A DNA stretch of 64,000 nt. Origin: a phage. Positions within the stretch are counted from its first letter, which is position 1. Every line of letters begins with the position of its first letter. Shown here one piece after another: positions 47,773 to 48,604 of this stretch. The notes beneath the pieces are model-generated. The model saw only the letters and a list, made by a program, of their open reading frames with translations. It made no database searches and was not told the DNA's origin. The stretch lies in the sequence record PX421306.1; one strand, 5' to 3'. Both the position numbers and the translations under genes were made by a program.

Positions 47773-47848
47773 TGGTCGAGGCAGTAGGGATCGAACCTAC
47801 GACCTAGGACTTAGAAGGTCCTTGCTCTTCCTTCTGAGCTATGCCTCG
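47773..47848 (-). tRNA. tRNA-Arg (anticodon UCU)
   Basis: 76 nt cloverleaf folded by hand; anticodon loop CUUCUAA; GGUUCGAUCC T-arm; encoded CCA. Confidence 0.85.
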
Positions 47849-47852
47849 GATT

Positions 47853-47927
47853 TGGCGGACGTGATAGGATTCGAACCTATAACCAATCGCTTAACAGGCG
47901 ATCGCTCTGCCATTGAGCTACACATCC
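47853..47927 (-). tRNA. tRNA-Asn (anticodon GUU)
   Basis: 75 nt; anticodon stem ATCGC/GCGAT, loop CUGUUAA; TTCGAAT T-loop; encoded CCA. Confidence 0.8.
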
Positions 47928-47931
47928 AAAT

Positions 47932-48018
47932 TGGTGGGGAGTGATGGAGTCGAACCACCCGAGTCGCAATGACAATGGATTTACAGTCCACACCGCTACC
48001 TCTACGGGATAACTCCCC
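47932..48018 (-). tRNA. tRNA-Tyr (anticodon GUA)
   Basis: 87 nt with long variable arm; anticodon loop CUGUAAA; encoded CCA. Confidence 0.75.
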
Positions 48019-48031
48019 TTAATTCTTAATT

Positions 48032-48106
48032 TGGTGGCCCTGGGTGGAATTGAACCACCATCTGGCGATTATGAGTCGCTTGCTTGAACCTTCCAGCTAC
48101 AGGGCC
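48032..48106 (-). tRNA. tRNA with CAU anticodon (Met, or Ile if lysidine-modified)
   Basis: 75 nt; perfect 7-bp acceptor stem; anticodon loop CUCAUAA; encoded CCA. Confidence 0.75.
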
Positions 48107-48107
48107 T

Positions 48108-48183
48108 TGGTGCTGATTGACGGAATCGAACCGCCGACCTTCTCATTACAAGTGAGTTGCTCTACCTACTAAGCTAAATCAGC
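48108..48183 (-). tRNA. tRNA-Thr (anticodon UGU)
   Basis: 76 nt; anticodon loop CUUGUAA; GGCGG-TTCGATT-CCGTC T-arm; encoded CCA. Confidence 0.85.
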
Positions 48184-48188
48184 AAAAC

Positions 48189-48278
48189 TGGCGGAGGCGA
48201 TAGGATTTGAACCTATGAGTCGCCGGAACGACTGCCGGTTTTCAAGACCGGTGCATTAAACCACTCTGCCACGCCTCC
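48189..48278 (-). tRNA. tRNA-Ser (anticodon UGA)
   Basis: 90 nt with long variable arm; anticodon loop CUUGAAA; encoded CCA. Confidence 0.8.
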
Positions 48279-48280
48279 AG

Positions 48281-48354
48281 TCTCCATACAAGGATTTGAA
48301 CCTTGGACCTCCTGATCCCAAATCAGGCGCTCTACCAAACTGAGCTACACGGAG
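48281..48354 (-). tRNA. tRNA-Pro (anticodon UGG), CCA not encoded
   Basis: Anticodon loop UUUGGGA; only 2 nt from tRNA-Ser (dimeric precursor as in T4). Confidence 0.8.
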
Positions 48355-48364
48355 TAAATTAAAT

Positions 48365-48438
48365 TGGAGCGGATAATGAGAATCGAACTCACATCATCAG
48401 ATTGGAAGTCTGAGGTAATGCCATTATACGATATCCGC
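48365..48438 (-). tRNA. tRNA-Gly (anticodon UCC)
   Basis: 74 nt; anticodon stem TCAGA/TCTGA, loop CUUCCAA; encoded CCA. Confidence 0.85.
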
Positions 48439-48443
48439 AAATT

Positions 48444-48530
48444 TGGTGCGAGAAGTGGGACTCGAACCCACAAGGAAATCATTCCGCAGCATTTTAAGTG
48501 CTGTGCCTTTACCAATTTGACCATTCTCGC
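48444..48530 (-). tRNA. tRNA-Leu (anticodon UAA)
   Basis: 87 nt with long variable arm; anticodon loop CUUAAAA; encoded CCA. Confidence 0.8.
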
Positions 48531-48531
48531 G

Positions 48532-48604
48532 CTGGGAATAAAGGACTCGAACCTTTGCATCCTGGAATCAAAATCCAGTGCCTTACCAACTTGGCTAATT
48601 CCCA
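48532..48604 (-). tRNA. tRNA-Gln (anticodon UUG), CCA not encoded
   Basis: Anticodon loop UUUUGAU; 1 nt from tRNA-Leu (Gln-Leu dimeric precursor as in T4). Confidence 0.8.

Follow-up and report, generated by a model that had tools for sequence, protein, structure and literature searches.

Several forms of the tRNA gene region have been described among the T-even phages, with and without the homing-endonuclease gene segB. In T4 the annotated order is Gln, Leu, Gly, Pro, Ser, Thr, Ile, segB, Arg, rnaD and rnaC, which gives eight tRNAs and includes neither Tyr nor Asn. The corresponding regions of T2L, RB1 and RB3, sequenced by Brok-Volchanskaya et al. 2008, have no segB and carry genes for tRNA-Met(CAU), Tyr, Asn and Arg; the preferred 27-bp recognition site of SegB lies wholly within the tRNA-Asn gene, and in crosses of T4 with T2L the enzyme converts about 1250 bp holding the CAU-Tyr-Asn-Arg genes (PMC2330249). 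The T2 record (AP018813) reads Gln, Leu, Gly, Pro, Ser, an open reading frame (ORF), Met(CAU), Tyr, Asn, Arg and an ORF of 351 nucleotides (nt). T6 (Gln, Leu, Gly, Thr, Met(CAU), Tyr, segB, Arg) represents an intermediate form, which lacks Asn, Pro and Ser and has segB together with a T4-type Arg and a T4-type CAU tRNA. Here, a cluster of tRNA genes found in 64,000 nt of phage DNA from record PX421306.1 (this whole stretch is called the window below) is compared with these systems. The locus is, with high probability, a Tequatrovirus tRNA operon of the segB-free, T2L type, supplying tRNAs for codons in demand and, to some extent, buffering the phage against host defences that cleave tRNA.

Gene content and allele structure of the operon

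Over the whole window ARAGORN calls exactly 10 tRNA genes, all on the minus strand between 47773 and 48604, which in transcription order read Gln UUG, Leu UAA, Gly UCC, Pro UGG, Ser UGA, Thr UGU, CAU, Tyr GUA, Asn GUU and Arg UCU (Table 1). The Rfam tRNA model recovers nine of the ten at 59-74 bits (E 1e-11 to 2e-15), and the pattern is not due to chance. CCA is encoded in eight genes; the two without it, Gln and Pro, are the upstream members of tight pairs, Gln abutting Leu with a 0-nt spacer and Pro abutting Ser with 1 nt. The original prediction, obtained by folding the sequence by hand, had placed ten tRNAs with these anticodons at the same coordinates, Tyr(GUA) and Asn(GUU) included, and had likened the abutting, CCA-less Pro and Gln genes to those of T4, all of which the present calls bear out. 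Its spacer range of 1-13 nt is correct at the upper bound and wrong at the lower one, as the spacers between the ten genes measure 0-13 nt.

In the remaining gene, tRNA-Tyr, the D-arm is irregular and contains a mismatch, and Rfam yields only a sub-threshold match to the tRNA-Sec clan (34 bits). ARAGORN nevertheless calls this gene, many relatives annotate it as tRNA-Tyr, and the T6 tRNA-Tyr, identical to it at 85 of 87 positions, has been detected experimentally (PMC13096335). Treating the gene as a pseudogene or artefact on account of its weak Rfam score was rejected on the grounds of its conservation and of the T6 experiments. Other sub-threshold Rfam matches (Plastid-ycf2, sX4 and YrlA) fall over the tRNA genes and were dismissed as tRNA look-alikes. 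Public records often overlook tRNA-Tyr or give it a wrong label: in RefSeq, ime09 (NC_019503) is annotated with nine tRNAs and without the Tyr gene at 3033-3119, which is 100% identical to the one in the window, and other records label it 'tRNA-OTHER' or 'Xle'.

The window belongs to a Tequatrovirus, that is, a T4-like phage. It is 97-99% identical to ime09, vB_EcoM_HZ_ZJUN4, Yersinia phage PYps32T and many others, and a 24-kb stretch around the operon is collinear with the same Tequatrovirus genomes; in all, 987 phage records match the tRNA region. Across this region the window is collinear with both ime09 and T4, with the operon flanked by the e.x genes on one side and by trna.2-trna.4, ipI, 57B, 57A and gene 1 on the other, and sharing its strand with these genes. 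The locus can be recognized as the T-even tRNA region because the aligned 3' end and the leader of the 95-amino-acid (aa) ORF on its upstream flank are near-identical to T4.

Genomic position, strand, the CCA-less Gln and Pro genes, the presence of a CAU tRNA after Thr, and rnaD and rnaC downstream are all shared by the window and T4. The six genes from Gln to Thr are 95-100% identical in the two phages, except for Gln (89%), in which the differences lie in the anticodon arm. Homology is then lost within the CAU/Ile gene and returns precisely with the first bases of rnaD. The segment between these breakpoints consists, in T4, of segB and a tRNA-Arg of its own; in the window it begins with the 3' portion of a CAU tRNA that differs from the T4 one, continues with Tyr, Asn and an Arg(UCU) not related to the T4 gene, and includes a 116-aa ORF after them, and a tblastn search with T4 SegB finds no homologue anywhere in the 64 kb (best E 0.53). 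The window agrees with the T2L-type form in having no segB and in the small ORF that follows Arg and precedes rnaD and rnaC. Relative to T2 itself, the Asn and CAU tRNAs are identical (75/75 each) and Tyr and Arg differ by 1 nt each, but T2 has a 402-nt ORF (5711-6112) in place of tRNA-Thr, a gene that the window, like ime09, keeps. Annotations of ime09, BW-1, PE37 and many further Tequatroviruses show the T2L-type arrangement as well; the tRNAs of ime09, ECO07P2 and BW-1 are 98.6-100% identical to those of the window, with the order kept.

The Asn-Tyr segment is found in at least 434 phage records at >=80% coverage and segB in 183 (126 of them at >=80% coverage), and the ten-tRNA form is therefore commoner than the T4 form. 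The eight-tRNA set of T4 is a derived, endonuclease-invaded state: T4 is without Tyr and Asn because a homing-endonuclease cassette, segB with a different tRNA-Arg, occupies their place. The original prediction rightly set Tyr and Asn outside the annotated T4 repertoire but missed this origin of the shorter set, and it took the arrangement to be unusual. In fact the ten-tRNA region was already known: it was published in 2008 for T2L, RB1 and RB3 (PMC2330249), hundreds of genomes have it annotated, and among sequenced Tequatroviruses it is the allele found more often, which corrects the perspective from which the locus should be viewed. The window tRNA-Asn, identical to that of T2, holds the preferred 27-bp SegB site, and a match to the published motif RAWTSGAAC is found in it at 47868; this gene is a natural SegB target, at which cleavage is predicted, and the window phage would be a natural recipient for SegB homing. 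Altogether, the plus strand of the window has eight occurrences of the motif, three of which fall in T-arms, those of Asn (47868), Thr (48123) and Gly (48380).

The classical T-even phages differ in their tRNA sets in a mosaic fashion. They hold two unrelated tRNA-Arg(UCU) genes with 51% identity, one of which goes with segB (T4, at 3674-3748 in the locus, and T6, at 1677-1751) and the other with Tyr-Asn (T2, the window). About half of the closest relatives have an eleventh gene, tRNA-His(GUG), between Asn and Arg, as in Escherichia phage ECO07P2 (754-829 in the locus), along with a 114-nt spacer; the window has neither. The Tyr-Asn pair also matches, at 84% identity, a Tyr/(Thr)/Asn group on E. 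coli plasmids of ~109 kb (e.g., NZ_CP019027.1, 104808-104966). These large plasmids are probably phage-plasmids, and the pair may circulate as a module.

Codon demand and tRNA-cleaving defences

Codon usage was compared between 100 window ORFs (18,621 codons) and 70 annotated genes from a 50-kb stretch of E. coli K-12 (15,112 codons); two spurious ORFs over the tRNA genes were excluded, and the ranking is the same with or without them. The codons most enriched in the phage are AGA (4.2x), GGA (3.3x), TAT (3.2x), AAT (2.7x), ATA (2.6x), TCA (2.4x) and TTA (2.4x), all seven of which are read by the ten tRNAs. Eight late baseplate ORFs give a similar picture, with a top seven of AGA, GGA, ATA, TAT, ACA, TCA and AAT that the set again reads in full. 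With the list extended to the top 8 codons, seven of eight are covered in both gene sets (hypergeometric P 0.0007). Eight of the tRNAs read A-ending codons, namely CAA, UUA, GGA, CCA, UCA, ACA, AGA and AUA (the last through a CAU anticodon predicted to be lysidine-modified), and six of these eight codons are markedly commoner in the phage than in the E. coli sample. Tyr and Asn would extend this logic from A-ending codons to the very abundant UAU and AAU. Tyrosine is the most phage-enriched amino acid (4.7% vs 2.4%), and His codons show no enrichment. The classical explanation by codon supply thus suits Tyr and Asn no less than the core tRNAs of T4.

Three of the isotypes present in the window, Tyr(GUA), Asn(GUU) and Thr(UGU), are cleaved by published defences. 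Phage tRNAs that act against such defences are the tRNA-Tyr of T5 and T6, directed against retron-Eco7 and Septu, and the tRNA-Lys, Thr and Asn of T5, directed against PARIS. Septu (PtuAB) and retron-Eco7 cut tRNA-Tyr in the variable arm, and the T6 tRNA-Tyr, when over-expressed or amplified by SegB, restores plating against Septu; T4, which has no Tyr gene, shows the highest Septu sensitivity, and T2 is resistant (PMC13096335). The T6 tRNA is itself cut by Septu at the position used in the host tRNA and helps only via dosage (PMC13096335). The variable arm of the window tRNA-Tyr is identical to that of T6, but T6 has segB (Chihara et al. 2026, PMC13096335), and SegB-driven amplification of Tyr is not open to the window phage. 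tRNA-Asn(GUU) is a target of PARIS, whose nuclease AriB requires U36-A-A-U39-C40 and no longer cleaves when U39 is changed (PMC12409363). In the window, position 39 of Asn is G, against U39 in E. coli asnT, and position 40 of Thr is G, against C40 in E. coli Thr(UGU), which makes AriB resistance of both tRNAs possible, judging from these bases. Colicin E5, in turn, has UQU as its cleavage site in the tRNAs for Tyr, His, Asn and Asp (PMC1635277), and the anticodon loops of the window Tyr and Asn keep its recognition core U33-G34-U35. Tyr, and perhaps Asn and Thr, may also buffer the phage against tRNA-cleaving host defences. Compensation for codon usage and for anticodon nucleases, the two roles suggested in the original prediction for the extra tRNAs, are both reasonable in this light: TAT and AAT are among the most enriched codons, and tRNA-Tyr and tRNA-Asn(GUU) are published nuclease targets (PMC13096335, PMC12409363, PMC1635277).

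The two roles are compatible, and counter-defence is rated here as real but secondary. Conversely, counter-defence could be the main reason for keeping the two genes, with codon supply coming second: Tyr would replace the host tRNA-Tyr cut by Septu or retron-Eco7, and Asn the tRNA-Asn cut by PARIS AriB or colicin E5-like nucleases. The rescue by the T6 gene, the opposite Septu phenotypes of T4 and T2, the near-identity of the window Tyr to that of T6, and G39 and G40 in Asn and Thr speak for such an order of importance, as does the addition of tRNA-His(GUG) in sibling phages despite unenriched His codons, given that Tyr, Asn and His all belong to the four tRNA substrates of colicin E5 (PMC1635277). 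However, the T6 tRNA is cut like its host counterpart and acts by dosage, and the window carries one copy and no segB to amplify it, the Tyr and Asn loops retain the core recognized by colicin E5, the AriB resistance of Asn is suggested by a single base, and TAT and AAT rank third and fourth among the enriched codons, so that codon demand alone explains both genes. We therefore regard a primarily defensive role as possible but somewhat unlikely. It is tempting to go further and hypothesize that the variable tRNAs Tyr and Asn, joined by His in the siblings and all of the GUN (queuosine) class, form a module selected by nucleases attacking this class (Septu, retron-Eco7, PARIS and colicin E5-like enzymes), with an Asn made AriB-resistant by G39 and with SegB homing trading the protection away in T4-type phages; we hold this fuller scenario to be unlikely.

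Tyr and Asn might also be decaying or non-functional tRNA-like sequences, kept only as landing sites for SegB homing. The irregular D-arm and poor Rfam score of Tyr would suit such decay, as would its omission or its naming as 'tRNA-OTHER' in some annotations and the dispensability of the tRNA region in T4. Yet the two genes are kept at 98-100% in hundreds of phages, Asn has the best Rfam score of the ten (74 bits), the T6 tRNA-Tyr is expressed and biologically active (PMC13096335), and both genes match the strongest codon demands of the phage, which makes decay extremely improbable.

Codon supply with some counter-defence buffering is thus the preferred reading of the locus, although several points weigh against it. 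Neither T4 nor laboratory deletion mutants need these tRNAs for growth, and the benefit of the tRNAs is therefore conditional. CAA and CCA exceed only highly expressed host genes, not average ones; moreover, the host sample of 50 kb from E. coli K-12 is small and the true host may differ. Because the T6 tRNA-Tyr is cleaved and rescues only by dosage, a single-copy Tyr without segB may protect little. A promoter scan gave 7 sigma-70-like sites against 9.1 expected from shuffled sequence, and no promoter is claimed. The gene calls, synteny, allele structure, identity elements and codon statistics are demonstrated; transcription, processing and modification in this phage we infer, and the physiological role is likewise deduced. 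The window phage is a candidate for asking if Tyr and Asn genes present once each give protection from Septu, retron-Eco7 and PARIS.

Identity of the CAU tRNA

The original prediction counted the CAU-anticodon tRNA, along with Tyr and Asn, as lying beyond the T4 set, and for this gene the claim does not stand. The T4 tRNA-Ile gene also has a CAT anticodon, occupies the same position after Thr, and is annotated as isoleucyl-tRNA; the window gene is a diverged allele of it and no addition to the T4 set. Most likely it encodes a tRNA-Ile2 that reads AUA, with a predicted lysidine modification of the anticodon. Its identity is 65% to T4 tRNA-Ile, 77% to E. coli ileX and 60% to the elongator gene metT. 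It has the acceptor-stem pairs C4-G69 and C5-G68 that are required by E. coli TilS (PMC1635315), where E. coli metT has U4-A69 and A5-U68. The 15-nt anticodon stem-loop, GCGACUCAUAAUCGC, is identical to that of E. coli ileX, and the 5' acceptor strand is shared with T4 tRNA-Ile. Compared with E. coli tRNA-Ile2 (ileX/ileY), the D-arm is shorter (3-bp stem), the T-arm is different, and positions 27/43 form an A-C mismatch instead of G-U.

Read as an elongator tRNA-Met, the gene would be a true addition to the T4 repertoire. ARAGORN labels it Met, most GenBank annotations, those of relatives included, have it as tRNA-Met, the 2008 paper gives this name to the T2L gene, and its identity to T4 tRNA-Ile is low. 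It should be noted, however, that tools not modelling lysidine return Met by default for every CAT anticodon. Both the TilS determinants, which metT does not have, and the ileX stem-loop argue for isoleucine, and the gene sits exactly at the position of T4 tRNA-Ile, with the T4 5' acceptor strand. Codon usage points the same way, as ATA is enriched over the host 2.6-fold in all phage ORFs and 4.8-fold in the late baseplate ORFs, while ATG is not enriched (~1.2x). Initiator features are also missing, position 1 being paired (G1-C72) and the anticodon stem having no GGG/CCC run. On this evidence an elongator tRNA-Met is quite improbable, and an AUA-reading tRNA-Ile2 is preferred.

Organization of the unit and accompanying features

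The unit as a whole is made up of ten tRNA genes, an ORF, the genes of two stable RNAs and a terminator (Table 1). By analogy with T4, this block would be transcribed as polycistronic precursors and processed by host enzymes, with trimming by RNase P and 3' exonucleases; a CCA-adding enzyme would complete Gln and Pro, released from the Gln-Leu and Pro-Ser dimers. The Ser and CAU tRNA genes encode CCA in the window and the Ser and Ile genes of T4 do not, so that less reliance than in T4 on host 3' trimming and CCA addition would be expected.

Table 1. Annotated features of the tRNA operon and its flanks, with positions in the window
Feature	Position	Strand	Remarks
dNMP (deoxynucleoside monophosphate) kinase homologue	50690-51403		supports T-even placement
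95-aa ORF, upstream flank	48702..48989	-	position and length of T4 Trna.2; phrog_2023
tRNA-Gln(UUG)	48531..48604	-	first gene; no CCA; abuts Leu (Gln-Leu dimeric precursor); Rfam 67 bits
tRNA-Leu(UAA)	48444..48530	-	CCA encoded; identical to T4
tRNA-Gly(UCC)	48365..48438	-	CCA encoded
tRNA-Pro(UGG)	48280..48354	-	no CCA; 1 nt before Ser (Pro-Ser dimeric precursor)
tRNA-Ser(UGA)	48189..48278	-	CCA encoded, unlike the T4 Ser gene
tRNA-Thr(UGU)	48108..48183	-	ARAGORN and Rfam; CCA encoded
CAU-anticodon tRNA, best read as tRNA-Ile2	48032..48106	-	positional counterpart of T4 tRNA-Ile
tRNA-Tyr(GUA)	47932..48018	-	class II, long variable arm; 85/87 identical to T6 tRNA-Tyr
tRNA-Asn(GUU)	47853..47927	-	Rfam 74 bits, best of ten; 75/75 identical to T2 tRNA-Asn
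tRNA-Arg(UCU), T2 type	47773..47848	-	75/76 identical to T2; 51% to T4/T6 tRNA-Arg
116-aa ORF	47406..47756	-	between tRNA-Arg and rnaD, inside the variable cassette; phrog_3355, unknown-function family
rnaD (species 2) homologue	47290..47409	-	107/121 identical to T4 stable RNA (88%)
rnaC (species 1) homologue	47145..47283	-	136/139 identical to T4 stable RNA (98%)
Intrinsic-terminator-like hairpin	47071..47094	-	strong; 10-bp stem with 7 G-C pairs and a T run; ends the block of RNA genes

The conserved 116-aa ORF, which T2 also has, appears to be confined to this group of viruses: a homologue search found only T4-like phages, with seven proteins and no functional names among them. It has no Pfam match, and in PHROGs it belongs to an unknown-function family only. 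A sequence search of the PDB gave no match below E 0.3, and the AlphaFold2 model, which is mediocre (predicted local distance difference test, pLDDT, 67), has no Foldseek match in the PDB below E 0.7. The stop codon of the ORF overlaps the start of the rnaD homologue. In the window, Rfam has no family covering the rnaC/rnaD region. This downstream stretch folds far beyond shuffled sequence (z = -5.4), and a tRNA-like T-arm can be seen in the 3' half of rnaC.

The window tRNA-Gln differs from the tRNA-Gln of T4, T2 and T6 only in the anticodon arm, which reads CUGGA-UUUUGAU-UCCAG in the window and UAGCA-CUUUGAC-UGCUA in T4. There are eight changes, fully compensatory in the stem and including loop positions 32 and 38. 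The resulting anticodon loop is that of E. coli glnU, and the variant is common to ime09, ECO07P2 and BW-1.

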